This document shows, piece by piece, positions 20,543-62,573 of a stretch of 64,000 bases of DNA. A program made the position numbers and the translations under genes. The first letter of the stretch is position 1, and each line of letters begins with the position of its first letter. Under the pieces are notes generated by a model. That model was not told where the DNA came from, did no database searches, and worked only from the letters and a program-made list of their open reading frames with translations. The DNA comes from an uncultured Alphaproteobacteria bacterium (GTDB lineage: Bacteria; Pseudomonadota; Alphaproteobacteria; RUG11792): contig CALXQI010000011.1 of the NCBI GenBank assembly GCA_944390585.1, positions 8,190 to 72,189 of the forward strand. Reading direction: 5' to 3'.

Positions 20543-21250
20543 GTGTACTACGCACTGACTAGATTATTTTTTGCATTTTTATTGTCTGTAGTTGATTTAT
20601 ATGCAGCTCAGTATAACCGAACACAACTTCCACTATTGCCAGATATTCAAAAAACGTTTCCATTAATTACAGCTAATAGATTTATGATTGCAAATACAGA
20701 CACAATGTGTGTCTTGAATGAAAAAGGAGCTGATGGAGATTCTAGTAGCATCAATTTGTATACAGCAGCAATATTTGGCGCTGATGACAAACGTTATGTA
20801 TGTTACAAGTATAAAAATGTTAATAAGTGTAATTTTATTATTGTACTATATTATAATGAATATTATGTTGATCAAATACAACAAGATAAAGAATACATTA
20901 ATAAATGGTTAGATATGTTTTATATAAGTAAAGTATCATGTATAAAGTGTCATTTTGCAAGTACAAGGATAATTTATGCAGATGGAGTACATAATGTCCC
21001 AGCTACATTAAAAAAAGATATTCAAATTATAACAACAAAGCGATGTGCAATAAAAAAAGTATTACGATACAAAGCATCTGTAAAAGCACCAGTACATTTT
21101 TATACAAAGATAGGATCATTAAATATATATTCTATTTTTGTTAATCCAATATCTATTCCTATTTACGCTCATGTTAACGTAAAAAAGACAACAGTATACA
21201 AGAGAATTCTTGAATCTATCAGGATATTGATTTTTGGACAGAATTCGTAG
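20543..21250 (+). CDS. Signal-peptide protein resembling an internally deleted D-Ala-D-Ala carboxypeptidase (PBP5/DacA-like, probably non-catalytic)
   Basis: 235 aa with a GTG start. The N-terminal part (LPDIQKTFPLITANRFMIANTDTMCVLNEKGADGDSSSINLYTAAIF) parallels the DacA entry strand and SxxK region, but the Lys is absent. The C-terminal part (ASVKAPVHFYTKIGSLNIY..ISIPIYAHVNVKK) resembles the PBP5 C-terminal beta domain. The SxN/KTG core appears to be missing. Confidence 0.4.
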   Translation: MYYALTRLFFAFLLSVVDLYAAQYNRTQLPLLPDIQKTFPLITANRFMIANTDTMCVLNEKGADGDSSSINLYTAAIFGADDKRYVCYKYKNVNKCNFIIVLYYNEYYVDQIQQDKEYINKWLDMFYISKVSCIKCHFASTRIIYADGVHNVPATLKKDIQIITTKRCAIKKVLRYKASVKAPVHFYTKIGSLNIYSIFVNPISIPIYAHVNVKKTTVYKRILESIRILIFGQNS

Positions 21251-21282
21251 CGTAAACTATATGTATTAATATAAAAAAACAA

Positions 21283-21311
21283 TTGACATTATTAAAATGT
21301 AATGATATAAT
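21283..21311 (+). promoter_or_regulatory. Consensus sigma-70 promoter TTGACA-17-TATAAT
   Basis: TTGACA lies at 21283-21288, followed by a 17-nt spacer and TATAAT at 21306-21311. The -10 element is 36 nt upstream of ATG 21347. Confidence 0.55.
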
Positions 21312-21346
21312 ACTAAAGCGTTTATGTTGTTTTATAAGGAACTAAA

Positions 21347-22040
21347 ATGAAGAAAACAGTATTGTTATTAATTACATTATGCTGTTGGGGGGGCTGCAGC
21401 AGCAGGCACTGGTGTAGGTGAGAGGCAAGATGTTGAGTGGAGAGAAGAATTTGAGGCAATGTTTGTGGAAGTGAATAAGGGATTGGATAGTATGTTGGGT
21501 GATAGCAGGGAATGGATTGATGTGGACATTATTATGGATGAAAAAGAGAAGGAGAGAATGAAATATGCGATACATAGGGTGCTTGTGTATAGGGGGATGA
21601 TTCATGTACCTGTGGAGATTGTAGAAACTATGAATTATATGTGTGCGATATTGGAGGAGATGGGACGAGATGGGGCGGAAGTGATAAATGCGATTATGCC
21701 TGAACGGAGGCAAAGGTTTTGGGCAAAGGTTCACAAGTATGTGGAAATGCTTGAAATTTGTTGTGAAATGGAAGAAACGCAAAAACATGACTGGGATGAG
21801 GTGTCACGAGAAAATCTGGGGACAAGTGGTGTGTTGACTGCGTGCCGGGACAGTGCACGTCGGATGCGCGAATATCTTGCTGGAAAGTTTGTTGGCGCTA
21901 GGAGGGGTATTCAGCAACAAACGATCCAACGCAATGCGGGAAATGGCGAAGTGGAGACGAGAGTGCAAAACACAAACGAGAGGGGAAATAACACAAATGG
22001 GGATGCGGATTATTTTGATGGGCCAAGGGCCGCAATGTGA
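21347..22040 (+). pseudogene. Secreted-protein family member interrupted by a +1 frame change inside a G7 run (frameshifted or phase-variable)
   Basis: ATG 21347 encodes MKKTVLLLITLCCWGG and then reaches TGA at 21419-21421. The body (track ORF 21459..22040, frame open from 21372) is in the next frame. The two frames cross in GGGGGGG at 21387-21393. Confidence 0.6.
21387..21393 (+). repeat. Homopolymeric G7 tract at the signal-peptide/mature-protein junction
   Basis: Direct read of the sequence: tgttGGGGGGGctgc. Confidence 0.9.
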
Positions 22041-23178: not shown

Positions 23179-23769
23179 CTACATTATGGAGTCCCCATAG
23201 CATAATCTTGCAAGAACATTCATTATCCAATAATGATGAACTTCACACAACTTTAGCATTTCTATTTTAAGTTCAAATTTATGAAGCGCGTTATCAGTTT
23301 TTTGCATTTTTTCCACAACGTTATGGCATCTACAAAGATAATTTCCTATTTTGCTTGCTCGCACAAACAGGTCACCACGGATAATATCGTGTTTAATAAG
23401 TTTGTTATTATCACACACCATGTATCAATCATTCAAGTTCGCTTACTTCTTTAATCCTTGACTTTTCAATAAATTCTTTATAAATTTTTAACTCTGCATC
23501 ATCTATTTCTTGTTGTCTTTTTAATTTTAATTCTTTTATCTTCCGTGCATCGCTAATTGACTTTATCAATTGATCATGCTTATCATTTATTGCCACAAGT
23601 CAGGATATGGTTCAAAAAACTGGACAATGCGTGCTCTAACTTACAAAATGCCCCCATAATTTGTGTTGTTTGCTCGCTTGTTTGCGCTACTACACCTTTG
23701 CTACTAGCAAAACTACCCCCTCCCCCCACAGCAACAAACAACAGTCAACACTAATAAAATCTTATTCAT
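23179..23769 (-). pseudogene. Decayed tandem paralog of the 24032..24676 secreted protein
   Basis: ATG 23769 encodes MNKILLVLTVVCCCGGRG and then a stop. The other frames continue as GSFASSKGVVAQTSEQTT..FCKLEHALSSFLNHI, then PYPDLWQ-stop, then INDKHDQLIKSISDARKIKELKLKRQQEIDDAELKIY. The remaining 80-aa ORF is 23179..23421. All segments are collinear with the intact neighbour, with at least 3 frame disruptions. Confidence 0.7.
23716..23727 (-). repeat. G6-A-G5 tract right after the signal peptide of the pseudogene
   Basis: The plus strand reads CCCCCTCCCCCC at 23716-23727. Confidence 0.9.
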
Positions 23770-53443: not shown

Positions 53444-53857
53444 ATGTTTACAAAAAGTGTGATTATTGCTTTGTGCTGTTTGCAGTGTTTTGACATATAT
53501 GCAAGTAATAATGCAGCATCTGAAACACAAACTACAGAAGATGATAAAGAAAATGTAGATTGGCAATTTTTAGGATCAAATGATAATTCTGGAAAAGAAG
53601 TGAATGAAAAAATATTTGCTTTATTAAAAAAAATACATGAGGCTGATAAAGAAAATGCAAAAAATAACAATGAACGTATAAAAAATATTGAAGAAAAACT
53701 TGCAGAGCTAAGCAATAAAATTGATACTATCTTGATGAATGCAAATATACAGACAACACAACAAGAAAATAATACGCCAGAGAATACACAACAGAAAGGT
53801 GGAAATAATGTTGTAGATGGGCAAGAGGTTGCATCTGAACAAGAAGCTATCGTTTAG
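53444..53857 (+). CDS. Secreted low-complexity / coiled-coil protein, unknown function
   Basis: 137 aa with the signal MFTKSVIIALCCLQCFDIYAS and an N/E/K/Q-rich body. Its stop abuts the next gene. Confidence 0.55.
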   Translation: MFTKSVIIALCCLQCFDIYASNNAASETQTTEDDKENVDWQFLGSNDNSGKEVNEKIFALLKKIHEADKENAKNNNERIKNIEEKLAELSNKIDTILMNANIQTTQQENNTPENTQQKGGNNVVDGQEVASEQEAIV

Positions 53858-53865
53858 TGAAAATT

Positions 53866-54276
53866 ATGAAATTGTTAAGAAAATGTATACAAGGTTTTGC
53901 ACTTATAGAAGTTGCAATTGCTTTGGCAATTTTGGGCGTGTTATCTATTGCGGCTGTTAAGGGGTTGTCAATGCTGGATAACGCAAGAATGGATAAACAG
54001 GTTAATACTGTTTCTGCTATCGTGGCAGCGTACAATATGTATATACAAAGTTATGGTGATGAAAATAGTGAAGAGATAAATAATTTTATTCATGAGCAAG
54101 TTATGATTGATAAGTCTATTGATGTTGATACTGGGAATAAAACAATTACTATAACAACAGACAAAAAACATGTCGAACAAATGTTTAAAAAATTACAAAT
54201 GTGCTTAAATACAGAGCAAGTTACAAAAGGTGAGGATAGTGCAACAATAACAGTTACACTGTCGCCTGGCGCATAA
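53866..54276 (+). CDS. Prepilin-type N-terminal cleavage/methylation domain protein (pilin/pseudopilin-like), orphan
   Basis: It has a class III signal: the leader MKLLRKCIQG is followed by FALIEVAIALAILGVLSIAAV (G-1, F+1, E+5). The track ORF starts at GTG 53857, but ATG 53866 gives the canonical short basic leader. Confidence 0.65.
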   Translation: MKLLRKCIQGFALIEVAIALAILGVLSIAAVKGLSMLDNARMDKQVNTVSAIVAAYNMYIQSYGDENSEEINNFIHEQVMIDKSIDVDTGNKTITITTDKKHVEQMFKKLQMCLNTEQVTKGEDSATITVTLSPGA

Positions 54277-55507: not shown

Positions 55508-55583
55508 TGGCAGGAGTGGAGGGACTCGAACCCCCAACCGACGGTTTTGGAGACCGTTACTCTACCAATTGAGCTACACTCCT
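55508..55583 (-). tRNA. trnW: tRNA-Trp (CCA anticodon), 3' CCA encoded
   Basis: The reverse complement is AGGAGTGTAGCTCAATTGGTAGAGTAACGGTCTCCAAAACCGTCGGTTGGGGGTTCGAGTCCCTCCACTCCTGCCA. It folds as a cloverleaf with anticodon loop CTCCAAA. The 76-nt length is consistent with ORF-track anchors. Confidence 0.93.
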
Positions 55584-55607: not shown

Positions 55608-56183
55608 TCAATAAATTTCTTTACCTTTCTGTGTATACATTTTTGTGTACGTCTGTGGGCGCCCATTTTCGTACATTGTCTCTGTCATTTTCTCTCCATT
55701 TGGGTAATATGTAATTCTTTTTCCACATATTAGATCATTTATATAAAAACATTTTTCAGATATGCCACCACCATTTGTTTTAGGAAAATATGCAGTATAT
55801 TCTCCGTTTTTAAGACCGTCTTTATATGTAAATTCTATGATTTTATCTCCAAATTCATCGTACGATGCGGTATATCCATTTAAAACACCGTTTTCATAAT
55901 TTGTCTCAAATTGCAAAACACCGCTTTCATAAAAGCTCATCATTTTTCCATTGGGATGATTTTCTTTATACTCGGCTTTTAGTGCAATATTGCCATTTAT
56001 ATGGTAATTACAAATATATCCAGAAATCATATCGTTTTTATATTCTATTTCTGCTATCAGTCTGCCTGTAATGTCAAATGATTTTAAAATACCTTCACGT
56101 TTTCCATTGACAAAATTAATAATCAGCTTTCCAAAATCTGTATTCTCTACATACTCACCAGAAAAATTATCATCAATAATCAT
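55608..56183 (-). CDS. MORN-repeat (YwqK-like) protein
   Basis: 191 aa built from tandem Y.NG...G repeats (YKNDMISGY, YKENHPNGK, YENGVLNGY, YKDGLKNGEY, YPNGEKMTE, YENGRPQ). Confidence 0.75.
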   Translation of the reverse strand: MIIDDNFSGEYVENTDFGKLIINFVNGKREGILKSFDITGRLIAEIEYKNDMISGYICNYHINGNIALKAEYKENHPNGKMMSFYESGVLQFETNYENGVLNGYTASYDEFGDKIIEFTYKDGLKNGEYTAYFPKTNGGGISEKCFYINDLICGKRITYYPNGEKMTETMYENGRPQTYTKMYTQKGKEIY

Positions 56184-56846: not shown

Positions 56847-57073
56847 TCTACCAGTGCAATTGCAATCCAGAAGAACTGTAACATAAAAATGCGTAAATCG
56901 CCATTAAACATATGTCATTTGCGCTCCAAGCCGTTTATTATTAATTTATAAAAAATGTTATTAAAACTTATCGCAAAAATAGTTTTAAATAAATAAGGTA
57001 TAAAAAAATAGTATTGACATTGTTTAAATATAGTAGTAATACAGCGCTGCGTTGTTATATTTACGGTACAAAA

Positions 57074-57748
57074 ATGAACAAGGTTGTATTAGTGCTAGCT
57101 GCTGCTTGTTGTTGTGGAAATGGTTTTGCAAGTGGAATAAGAACAGCTTTTGTAGAATCATGGGTGAAGTTAGGAGAATTATTGGATAATGCTGCTCCTG
57201 ACGACAATGAATACAAACAGATGGGTGAATATAGATGTTCTGCTCTTGGTAAGGAAATGCTTGTGTGTAGGTATTCGTGTTGGCGTCCTGTCGTGAACAA
57301 TAACGAAGAGTTGCTGGAAGCTACAGTAAAGGCACGTGATGAAGCTACAATGAGATGGCGTGAAGTGAGAAGTGTGTGGTATGTGAATATGTGTAAAAAT
57401 ATGGAGAATGGTGAACCTGATATGGTAAATGCGGTTGTAGACACGATAAACGATGTTTGTGACAAGTATGAAACTATGAAAACGTGGAAACTAGATGTAG
57501 AGGGGATTGTGAACAGAGAAAGCGTGGAAGAATATAAACGTAAGATTGAGGTTTTGAAGGATTGTTGTAATGAATGTTTAGAAGAACGTTGTGAACTCGC
57601 GAGTGAATGTGATTGGTATTATTGTGGCACGCAAGAAGGAAAGATGGCGAAACGTGCTCAAGGAGGATGGTTGAGCATGTGTTATTCTAGTATGAAAACT
57701 GCTAAAATGTTGTTTTCCAGAGTATTTTCCGTGGAGAATGTTGGATAG
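57074..57748 (+). CDS. Secreted Cys/Trp-rich acidic protein, lineage-specific family
   Basis: The start was set at MNKVVLVLAAACCCGNGFAS. The track start at 57014 is actually the TTGACA -35 hexamer. The 5'UTR is nearly identical to that of pseudogene 23769. Confidence 0.65.
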   Translation: MNKVVLVLAAACCCGNGFASGIRTAFVESWVKLGELLDNAAPDDNEYKQMGEYRCSALGKEMLVCRYSCWRPVVNNNEELLEATVKARDEATMRWREVRSVWYVNMCKNMENGEPDMVNAVVDTINDVCDKYETMKTWKLDVEGIVNRESVEEYKRKIEVLKDCCNECLEERCELASECDWYYCGTQEGKMAKRAQGGWLSMCYSSMKTAKMLFSRVFSVENVG

Positions 57749-57976
57749 GCGAGAAACGGAAAAACAAAAGGTGTAAGTTGAAATAAAGTGAGTGAAAATA
57801 ATAATGAAAAACTAAGATATACATTGTTGCGCACTGATATTTGTGTGCACTTAAGAAATTTGGTTATTTTGATAATATTTGGAAAATTTAAAAATAATAC
57901 TTTGATACAACAATATTTTGACATTAATTACAATATTGTGATAGCATGACGCGGCATTGTATATTCAGAAAATAGA

Positions 57977-58744
57977 ATGAAAAAGGTATTATTATTGTTG
58001 GTTACTATGTTATCTTACAATGATGGGAATGCATCAGATGTTGCGCAAAATGCTGCGCAATATGAAGAAAAGAGAAGCGTCGTTTTGGACAAGCTTAACA
58101 AAGTTGAAAGTATAATAAGGGAAATGTCTGCCAAAGGTTTATTACCAAGTGATGAGTGCTGGCAGCTTGTCAAGGATATACAGGATCATGGTGTTGGTGG
58201 GGGTTTAAGCATGATAACAGAGCGGGATAAACGCGCACTTAGTGAGTTGTGGCTAAAATTGTTTAGCGGAGATGTGCTTGAAGAGTGTATTGCGAATAGG
58301 CTTGGAATAAATTGGGGCAGTTTTGGTAAGATTGCAAAAGCAGTGAACGAGTTTTTGGATGCACGCGATGAATTGCTGAAAGAACATGATAGAGAGGAAT
58401 TATTTTGCGATGGTTCCAAAATGTGTGGTGTGATGCAAGACTTGACTAGTAAGTTGCGTGAGATGCATGAGATAATGATGATGTGTGAGGAATGGGAAGA
58501 ATTTGAGAAAAAATTTGACAAACGTGTATATAGGAAAAATGAAGGGAGTATACCTACATATTATACATGTATTAGTATACCGTTGGAGAAAAAGAGAGGT
58601 GGGTTTGGTTGTGATGAAGTTTGCTGGTTGCAAACAATAAAGGTGGTAGAGATTTGTGACCCGAATAGCGATGCACGTTTGCAAATATACAGAAGATTAA
58701 AAAATTTGTTTGAGGAACAATGCACAAGATGCGGTGTTATATGA
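57977..58744 (+). CDS. Secreted Cys-rich acidic protein, lineage-specific family
   Basis: 255 aa with the signal MKKVLLLLVTMLSYNDGNAS. Upstream, TTGACA (57918-57923) plus GTGATAGCATGA is shared with the 23769 upstream region. Confidence 0.65.
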   Translation: MKKVLLLLVTMLSYNDGNASDVAQNAAQYEEKRSVVLDKLNKVESIIREMSAKGLLPSDECWQLVKDIQDHGVGGGLSMITERDKRALSELWLKLFSGDVLEECIANRLGINWGSFGKIAKAVNEFLDARDELLKEHDREELFCDGSKMCGVMQDLTSKLREMHEIMMMCEEWEEFEKKFDKRVYRKNEGSIPTYYTCISIPLEKKRGGFGCDEVCWLQTIKVVEICDPNSDARLQIYRRLKNLFEEQCTRCGVI

Positions 58745-62495: not shown

Positions 62496-62571
62496 TGGCG
62501 TCTCCTACGGGAGTCGAACCCGTGTTGCAGCCGTGAAAGGGCTGTGTCCTAGGCCTCTAGACGAAGGAGAC
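62496..62571 (-). tRNA. trnE: tRNA-Glu (TTC anticodon), CCA encoded
   Basis: The reverse complement is GTCTCCTTCGTCTAGAGGCCTAGGACACAGCCCTTTCACGGCTGCAACACGGGTTCGACTCCCGTAGGAGACGCCA (76 nt). Confidence 0.93.
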
Positions 62572-62573
62572 GT

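Follow-up and report, generated by a model that had tools for sequence, protein, structure and literature searches.

The 64-kilobase (kb) stretch of bacterial DNA analysed here, hereafter the window, contains five loci that probably represent a lineage-specific birth-and-death family of exported, cysteine-rich, helical proteins, in which a module for expression and export would be kept under constraint. The initial annotation of the window had reported a common start for genes at positions 21347 (+), 23769 (-), 24676 (-), 57074 (+) and 57977 (+), here designated A to E, and all the sequence strings it quoted were recovered at these coordinates. The interval on which it was centred, 57001-58744, holds two of these genes, D and E, which lie on the same strand, each behind its own promoter-like site. 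A, B and C are located approximately 33 kb away. A lineage-restricted paralogous family, in which promoter, leader and signal peptide form a conserved module while the bodies are much more divergent, is supported by the analyses below. Its description as the best candidate in the window for an undescribed system is, however, overstated, as each copy stands alone among housekeeping genes and no dedicated partner genes accompany any of them. The gene family is genuine and evolves fast, but it is of a fairly ordinary kind and constitutes no new system.

A shared module at the 5′ end of five loci

Alignment of the region from -120 to +60 of the five loci with MAFFT showed a clear consensus extending from the -35 hexamer through the end of the signal peptide. 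Leave-one-out nhmmer profiles of the region from -80 to +60, each built from four of the loci and searched against the 64-kb window for the fifth, returned the left-out locus as the best non-training match every time (e-values: A: 3e-9; B: 4e-16; C: 9e-9; D: 2e-20; E: 2e-8), while the next-best matches in the window had e-values of about 1e-3 or worse. A degenerate DNA pattern derived from the signal peptide furthermore matched four of the loci, against none expected from 100 shuffles. The similarity at the 5′ end is thus far beyond chance. The module measures approximately 135 nucleotides (nt).

Conservation of the upstream and 5′ untranslated regions had also been claimed. For the non-coding 80 nt alone this holds for B, D and E (leave-one-out e-values: 3e-6, 1e-6 and 5e-3, respectively), but not for A, for which the match was not significant (0.57), or for C, for which no match was obtained; these two loci owe their recovery to the signal-peptide part and to promoter similarity between pairs. 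When similarity was assessed region by region, the promoters of A and D were 87% identical (z score: 5.1), the leaders of B and D 79% (z score: 7.6) and the signal-peptide codons of C and D 82% (z score: 9.3). The similarity is confined to approximately -80 to +60, with z scores near zero for the region from -200 to -81 and for most body segments, and nothing was found beyond -80 save a single 30-nt match between B and C at different offsets. This element, AATATG...ATAATGCATTAAT..TTATGA, is located upstream of B at 23839-23868 (-) and upstream of C at 24746-24775 (-), and its distance to the ATG is about 90 nt greater in B than in C, implying that sequence was inserted or deleted between the element and the promoter.

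The proposal of a TTGACA-like -35 hexamer with a related spacer was borne out, as a near-consensus sigma-70-like site with a spacer of 16 to 18 nt precedes each ATG (Table 1), and the -35 hexamer is placed 58 to 64 nt before the ATG in all five loci. The site of A matches the consensus in 12/12 positions, while that of D, TTGACA-17-TAATAC, was read by eye. A scan for promoter-like sites in this AT-rich window returned 15 sites, compared to 8.3 expected. From the geometry of the promoters a leader of approximately 25-30 nt is predicted. No conserved RNA fold was found in this leader, where the RNAalifold consensus reached only -3.8 kcal/mol and Rfam gave no match. A small GC-rich palindrome (ACAGCGCTG..), flagged by a terminator scan, can be observed at 57041-57055 (+), at the predicted transcription start of D, and is absent from the other four modules.

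A six-frame search of the window (phmmer, hmmsearch and a regular expression for the leader motif; 596 open reading frames (ORFs)) revealed no members beyond A to E and the leader of one further gene, F. A recurring weak profile match at 43140-43190 was considered as a sixth member and rejected, as it falls inside a ksgA/rsmA-like ORF and is thus attributed to chance. The DNA pattern of the signal peptide gave single, unrelated matches only across 596 gigabases (Gb) of genomes. The 34 stretches of GTDB genomes and 93 stretches of Joint Genome Institute (JGI) metagenomes matched by the degenerate leader pattern, in two collections from which the source genome is absent or masked, represent single chance matches; nhmmer and tblastn applied to all 93 metagenome stretches identified no true relative, and the one genome match that was inspected (L031) lies inside a gpsA-like ORF. 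The module profile could serve as a simple probe with which to count family members across the full genome.

Predicted signal peptides and export

The N-termini encoded by A to E consist of M-N/K-K followed by an 11-residue hydrophobic core (mean Kyte-Doolittle value: 2.4-3.2), which usually ends in CC or CCC, and a c-region of the form G/S-x-A↓S, where the arrow marks the predicted cleavage site. The latter reads SFA↓S in B and C, GFA↓S in D and GNA↓S in E, while a repaired A would carry an AAAA/G run. All five thus have the positive n-region and the hydrophobic h-region of 7-15 residues that characterize Sec substrates, and small neutral residues, as read from the sequences, occupy positions -3 and -1 (AXA-like). 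This fits a Sec-type signal peptide that would be cut by signal peptidase I. The form M(N/K)K-hydrophobic-CC(C)G..(F)AS given by the initial annotation captures the overall architecture, but the CC motif is missing from E and the FAS motif from A.

The possibility that the products are lipoproteins processed by signal peptidase II was rejected because none of A to E has a lipobox. The first Cys is preceded by ITL in A, by TVV in B, by ATF in C and by AAA in D, and the leader of E contains no Cys. Tested against the pattern [LVI][ASTVI][GAS]C, the residue at -1 is L, V or F in A to C, and the Cys of D, at position 12, is unusually early.

Protein bodies and their relationships

The mature parts have isoelectric points (pI) of 4.9 to 6.0, and contain 3.9% Cys and 2.0% Trp, compared to 1.3% and 0.8%, respectively, in 13 housekeeping ORFs of the window, in agreement with their earlier description as acidic and rich in Cys and Trp. 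The bodies had also defied alignment by eye, but they proved partly alignable in a Smith-Waterman comparison of the mature parts, from which the leaders had been removed, against 500 shuffles. The similarity is strongest between B and C (p: 4e-12) and between C and D (p: 5e-4), and weaker between A and E (p: 0.008), A and C (p: 0.014) and A and D (p: 0.04). It is not significant between C and E or between D and E, and the proteins of B and D are at noise level (p: 0.49). A profile of the mature C, B and D alleles returned the A body as the best non-self match among the 596 ORFs of the window (e-value: 0.019) and did not find E, while hhalign comparison of small profiles gave only marginal, co-linear matches. 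B, C and D therefore form one family, in which A is probably included. E is tied to the other copies solely by its 5′ module and the weak match to A.

Comparisons against Pfam, NCBIfam, PHROGs and PADLOC yielded sub-threshold noise only. Among 5.8 billion clustered proteins, searches with D, a whole-family profile and E recovered only their own clusters, and HMMER, run exhaustively over 1.84 billion representatives with a profile of C and D, recovered only C and a fragment of D. The best match of a sequence-profile search of the PDB had an e-value of 0.078, and nothing was found in viral contigs searched with E and C. AlphaFold2 modelled C, with the five-sequence alignment, as a seven-helix all-alpha protein (predicted local distance difference test (pLDDT): 70; predicted template modelling score: 0.53), and Foldseek comparison of this model at pLDDT 70 against the PDB returned no fold match (best e-value: 1.4; template modelling score: 0.31). 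The model of E, predicted without an alignment, is poor (pLDDT: 52) and too weak to search with. The models are all-alpha and of low confidence. The statement that no known domain can be recognized in the bodies is upheld, as profile and structure searches place them in no known family. The proteins are true orphans, confined to this lineage; neither the billions of predicted proteins nor the solved structures yielded a relative. The proteins are new, but multigene families of orphan secreted proteins with a common leader are a familiar kind.

Strain variation and selection

Variation among strains was followed in contigs from at least four metagenome projects. The exact D protein is encoded on 10 metagenome contigs, and the D alleles differ by up to 9.6% of their nucleotides and are mosaic. 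E is intact in all six of its variants and is the sole member that is intact in every strain. The ratio of non-synonymous to synonymous substitution rates (dN/dS) is 0.22 for E, 0.55 for C, 0.63 for B and 0.64-1.04 for D, compared to 0.03-0.33 for the neighbouring housekeeping genes. The dN values of C, B and D are approximately ten times those of the neighbours, with similar dS values, and none of the dN/dS ratios is clearly above 1, so that no positive selection was detected. C, B and D are under relaxed constraint and undergoing pseudogenisation, while E is under ordinary purifying selection. The proposed pattern of a conserved module in front of diverging bodies is supported, but a host-facing role is not shown by it: the predicted Sec-type leader is the only feature that connects the proteins with a host, a surface or a secretion system.

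Between strains, the divergence upstream of A, D and E amounts to 0-1.3%, compared to 0-6.5% for other spacers on the same contigs, several of which exceed 3%, and this low divergence is consistent with constraint on the module. Between the window and contig L002, 21/21 differences across 1.9 kb fall within 58479-58735, the last approximately 260 nt of E. Similarly, the L043 allele of D (region 57088-57379) combines a 5′ half resembling L044 with a 3′ half resembling the window. Such clustered and mosaic single nucleotide differences suggest frequent homologous recombination between co-occurring strains. The occurrence of five loci within 64 kb together with gain and loss at the strain level is a signature of genes acting at an ecological interface, be it with a host, a phage or a competitor.

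G tracts and broken copies

It had initially been missed that A and B are out of frame at G tracts and that D, although intact in the window, has a nonsense allele in other strains (Table 1). The leader of A reads ...TGC TGT TGG GGG GGC..., with frame 0 stopping 11 codons on, and deletion of one G joins the signal peptide to a body of about 217 codons that is open in frame +1. The leader of B has the sequence ...TGT GGG GGG AGG GGG TAG, and the body resumes in frame +1 as SFASSKG... The G7 tract of A is the sole run of at least seven G or C in the 64 kb, while the tract of B holds one of only two runs of six bases. Both tracts fall where the Gly residues of the signal-peptide c-region are encoded, at the same codon position, and a slippage-prone repeat inside the reading frame, as is expected of phase-variable genes, is thus present in A and B.

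Three alleles of the A tract can be distinguished, namely G7 (the window and at least seven assemblies of the same haplotype, from several projects), G8AG (L047 and L048) and G9AG (L049), each of which is fixed within its haplotype. The B tract is identical in 10/10 covering assemblies. In-frame (ON) alleles were found in 0/11 A tracts and 0/10 B tracts, all from consensus assemblies, which cannot show minority ON cells. Further lesions are present in both genes. In L049 the A body contains an additional stop, while the window allele of B, compared to that of L047 and L048, lacks 4 nt, distributed over three gaps, and contains an in-frame stop. In L047 and L048, which belong to a haplotype with 9.9% divergence, the 184-codon body of B is fully open.

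Origin and evolution of the family

We suggest that A to E descend, as paralogues, from a single ancestral gene that encoded a small exported protein. Each copy would constitute its own transcription unit, in which a predicted sigma-70 promoter with an extended -10 directs synthesis of a short (approximately 25-30 nt), unstructured leader, and the mature product, an acidic, all-helical protein of 19-27 kDa, would reach the periplasm, probably form disulfide bonds there and possibly be released. The module of approximately 135 nt would be held by purifying selection because every copy needs expression and export, possibly aided by exchange between copies, while the mature parts would be weakly constrained and drifting. 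Individual copies appear to be dispensable and in the process of being lost, in the case of A and B through slippage in the G-rich Gly codons of the leader c-region, with further lesions accumulated in the window copy of B; C and E would then represent the working copies in the window. While the shared module, the lack of homologues, the frameshifts, the strain polymorphisms and the dN/dS values were observed directly, promoter activity, export, the cleavage site, the disulfides and any biological role are inferred, and a host-facing or effector role is possible.

Several observations weigh against such a history. The body of E cannot be linked to that of C or D, so that a plain history of duplication and divergence is unproven for E, for which transfer of the module is possible. 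The non-coding parts of B and D are approximately 80% identical while the similarity of their proteins does not exceed noise (p: 0.49), which is more than simple constraint readily explains. Furthermore, the frameshifts of A and B fall at the same codon position, and the shifted bodies are open, that of A, of about 217 codons, in most strains and that of B, of 184 codons, in the haplotype with 9.9% divergence, such that A and B could still be expressed.

The last two points bear on the unlikely alternative of phase variation, in which A and B would be contingency genes and slipped-strand mispairing at the G tract would toggle each copy ON or OFF in subpopulations and so generate a variable exported repertoire; a slipped ON allele would encode CCCGGGGSFASS. 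In favour of this are the location of the longest G/C run of the 64 kb (G7 of A) and of one of its two 6-base runs (in B) at the same codon position in two members, the three length alleles of the A tract in three haplotypes, compared to 1-3 substitutions in the 650-nt body, and the bodies that are open in frame +1 in most strains. No ON allele occurs, however, in the 21 tract observations (11 for A and 10 for B), the G7 tract is stable over at least eight assemblies of one haplotype, the B tract is invariant, and both the window copy of B and the L049 copy of A have acquired further defects, namely the additional lesions and the stop described above. If the G tracts were switches, they would represent leader-peptide contingency control in an alphaproteobacterium, of which we know no description. 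If they are not, the loci provide a clean, small case of regulatory and export signals outlasting the proteins they served during the decay of a family.

The unlinked body of E could also be accounted for if the module were a recombining cassette that gene conversion or recombination spreads onto, or keeps uniform across, unrelated bodies, as for the upstream homology box of Borrelia, and to this we assign a small probability. E carries the module without detectable similarity of its body to C or D, and B, whose body is sister to that of C, has the leader (79%; z score: 7.6) and promoter (81%) closest to those of D, located 33 kb away, while the leaders and promoters of B and C are not significantly similar. 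The D and E strain alleles are moreover mosaic, and recombination is thus active at the locus. These patterns are, however, drawn from five short sequences, in which differences in rate could produce an apparent incongruence; the module is not flanked by any repeat, integrase or recombination site, and the weak similarities of the A body to E and to C and D fit one old family. A broader version, in which the module acts as a cassette for expression and export that can be exchanged and is homogenised by recombination over unrelated, fast-evolving exported proteins throughout the genome, with the leader G tract serving as a switch for each copy by slippage or +1 recoding, is improbable. Were this true, it would constitute a previously unseen contingency repertoire in an uncultured, probably host-associated alphaproteobacterium.

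Programmed +1 ribosomal frameshifting, which in B (GGG GGG AGG GGG TAG T..) would resemble that of prfB, the gene for release factor 2 (RF2), is very unlikely. As in prfB, a Shine-Dalgarno-like element (AGGGGG/GGAGG), a codon for +1 re-pairing (GGG, in the P site) and an in-frame stop are present in B, and a +1 slip would give CCCGGRG-SFASSKG, restoring the family consensus with the junction peptide CCCGGRGSFASS. The tract is invariant in 10/10 assemblies, including those of the L047 haplotype, in which the B body is 9.9% diverged and fully open, the dN/dS of B (0.63) is not clearly neutral, and the A tracts of the window and L047 differ by 3 nt, so that the same +1 requirement is kept. Both the spacing and the slippery codon of B nevertheless differ from those of prfB: the Shine-Dalgarno-like element abuts the slippery codon without a spacer, whereas in prfB it is placed 3 nt from it. 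The site is furthermore not conserved in A, the tract of which is not followed by a stop, L049 would need a different shift, and B is multiply broken in the window. Finally, the notion that there is no family, but merely convergence of AT-rich promoter sequence and generic signal peptides, can safely be set aside, since the failure of the upstream-only leave-one-out searches for A and C and the many promoter sites in AT-rich DNA (15 compared to 8.3 expected) are outweighed by the whole-module leave-one-out searches (2e-8 to 2e-20), the shuffle test and the body homology of B with C and C with D, which refute it, and by the single, unrelated matches of the pattern over 596 Gb of genomes.

Comparison with known gene families

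Lipoproteins of the Erp/OspE-F/Elp families (and Mlp) of Borrelia burgdorferi are encoded on cp32 prophage plasmids and have a conserved promoter or upstream region and leader peptide, while their mature parts are very different or unrelated. The term 'upstream homology box' (UHB) is in use for such Borrelia families (PMC10016077; PMC7002432). A to E are similar to the latter in architecture only, with a conserved upstream region and leader, divergent mature parts and separate transcription units. Unlike these families, A to E are located on the chromosome among housekeeping genes, lack a lipobox and show no phage or plasmid context. No homology to Erp or Mlp proteins or to the UHB was found, as Pfam, NCBIfam and PHROGs gave no match and only the family's own clusters were recovered among 5.8e9 and 1.84e9 proteins.

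The Vlp proteins of Mycoplasma hyorhinis and the Vsp proteins of M. bovis similarly combine a conserved 5′ non-coding region and signal peptide with divergent bodies, and each copy is switched through a homopolymer tract. In Vlp this is a poly(A) tract in the promoter spacer and the products are repetitive lipoproteins, whereas A and B have a poly(G) tract in the codons of the leader peptide, encode non-repetitive, Cys-rich helical bodies and have yielded no ON allele. In the Opa genes of Neisseria and the poly-G genes of Campylobacter and Helicobacter, the slippage-prone repeat lies in the signal peptide or 5′ coding region, and AT-rich genomes contain few G tracts, which are concentrated in genes of this kind. 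A and B share with these contingency genes a repeat in the signal-peptide codons of an exported multigene family, with the rarity of the tract measured here within the 64-kb window. The Opa genes differ in having CTCTT pentamers and in encoding beta-barrel outer-membrane proteins. In all of these systems ON and OFF forms coexist, whereas 21/21 tracts of A and B are OFF. A to E belong to none of the Erp/Mlp, Vlp/Vsp, Opa-type or poly-G families.

Genomic context

The features of the five loci and of gene F are listed in Table 1. The window has a GC content of approximately 35% and is otherwise made up of housekeeping genes, including rpoBC, nusA-infB, several aminoacyl-tRNA synthetase genes, lon and prfA, together with genes for a resistance-nodulation-division (RND) pump and its membrane-fusion partner, mreC, the ribonuclease P (RNase P) RNA and transfer RNAs (tRNAs). 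No ribosomal RNA gene is present within the 64 kb. The presence of lnt and the RND system points to a diderm source bacterium. The top PDB chain matched by the RpoB of the window is 7ye1 (1741 bits), which we take to be the Caulobacter RNA polymerase, followed by chains at 1600 bits (7f0r and 7xya, presumably of Pseudomonas aeruginosa) and at 1563 bits (Escherichia coli), and this ranking suggests an alphaproteobacterium. Proteins identical to those of the family were found solely in metagenome assemblies. A Bacteroidaceae metagenome-assembled genome bears one of the project prefixes (BRZ_) as well, and the samples may therefore be of gut type.

Table 1. Coordinates and properties of the 5′ modules, genes and tracts of loci A to E and of gene F in the window.
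Feature	Position	Strand	Properties
D 5′ module	56998..57133	+	-35 TTGACA at 57014; -10-like TAATAC at ~57037; predicted leader of ~25 nt; ATG 57074; predicted signal peptide MNKVVLVLAAACCCGNGFA↓S
Gene D	57074..57748	+	224 amino acids (aa); intact in window; mature part ~205 aa, pI 4.9, 12 Cys, 7 Trp
Polymorphic site in D	57379	+	G>A; Trp102 TGG to TGA in alleles L043, L044 and L045
E 5′ module	57899..58036	+	TTGACA at 57918; 18-nt spacer; TAGCAT with extended -10 TG; ATG 57977; predicted signal peptide MKKVLLLLVTMLSYNDGNA↓S, no CC
Gene E	57977..58744	+	255 aa; intact in 6/6 variants; dN/dS 0.22
A 5′ module	21267..21406	+	Perfect TTGACA-17-TATAAT with extended -10 (21283-21311); AAGGA Shine-Dalgarno; ATG 21347; predicted signal peptide MKKTVLLLITLCC
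A G7 tract	21387..21393	+	In signal-peptide c-region; shifts body to frame +1
A body	21387..22040	+	Open in frame +1 over ~217 codons; weakly related to C, D and E
B 5′ module	23710..23848	-	TTGATA-16-TAGCAT (23827-23800); leader ~80% identical to that of D; ATG 23769; predicted signal peptide MNKILLVLTVVCCC
B G6AG5 tract, then TAG	23716..23727	-	Body continues in frame +1 as ...SFASSKG
B body	23179..23715	-	Pseudogene in window; clear paralogue of C
C 5′ module	24617..24754	-	TTAACA-17-TAATAT (24736-24708); ATG 24676; predicted signal peptide MNKILLVLATFCCLECSNSFA↓S
Gene C	24032..24676	-	214 aa; intact; in tandem with B; dN/dS 0.55
Gene F	53444..53857	+	137 aa; C-like in signal peptide only; membership doubtful

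The gene at 53444 (F) had been put forward as a possible distant member of the family. Its signal peptide does resemble that of C (43% over 23 aa; ALCCLQC..YAS compared to TFCCLEC..FAS), but its body is acidic and free of Cys, it is not detected by the module DNA profile, and promoter and leader are not shared, which leaves its membership doubtful. Where F ends (region 53444-54276, +), a 139-aa ORF begins with a weak match to N_methyl, the N-terminal methylation motif of type IV pilins and pseudopilins. F and this pilin-like ORF adjoin the RND pump genes and look co-transcribed.

Additional features can be observed elsewhere in the window. A 235-aa ORF with a hydrophobic N-terminus (20543-21250, +), located directly upstream of A, is kept in all strains (dN/dS: 0.33); it has no NCBIfam family match and gives only noise against PHROGs and PADLOC, and represents another lineage-specific protein. 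A 138-aa ORF (27436-27852, +), which immediately precedes the leuS ORF and overlaps it, matches Pfam Phage_connect_1 (head-tail connector) in the precomputed annotation of equivalent contigs, and may thus be a remnant of a gene-transfer agent or prophage. Among the housekeeping genes, the RNase P RNA (class A; 278 bits) is found at 30963-31344 (-), tRNA-Trp at 55508-55583 (-) and tRNA-Glu and tRNA-Lys at 62496-62649 (-). Between tRNA-Trp and holB lies a gene for a 191-aa protein with faint matches to MORN_2 repeats (55608-56183, -), which is highly conserved, differing by 0-0.7% of its nucleotides between strains.

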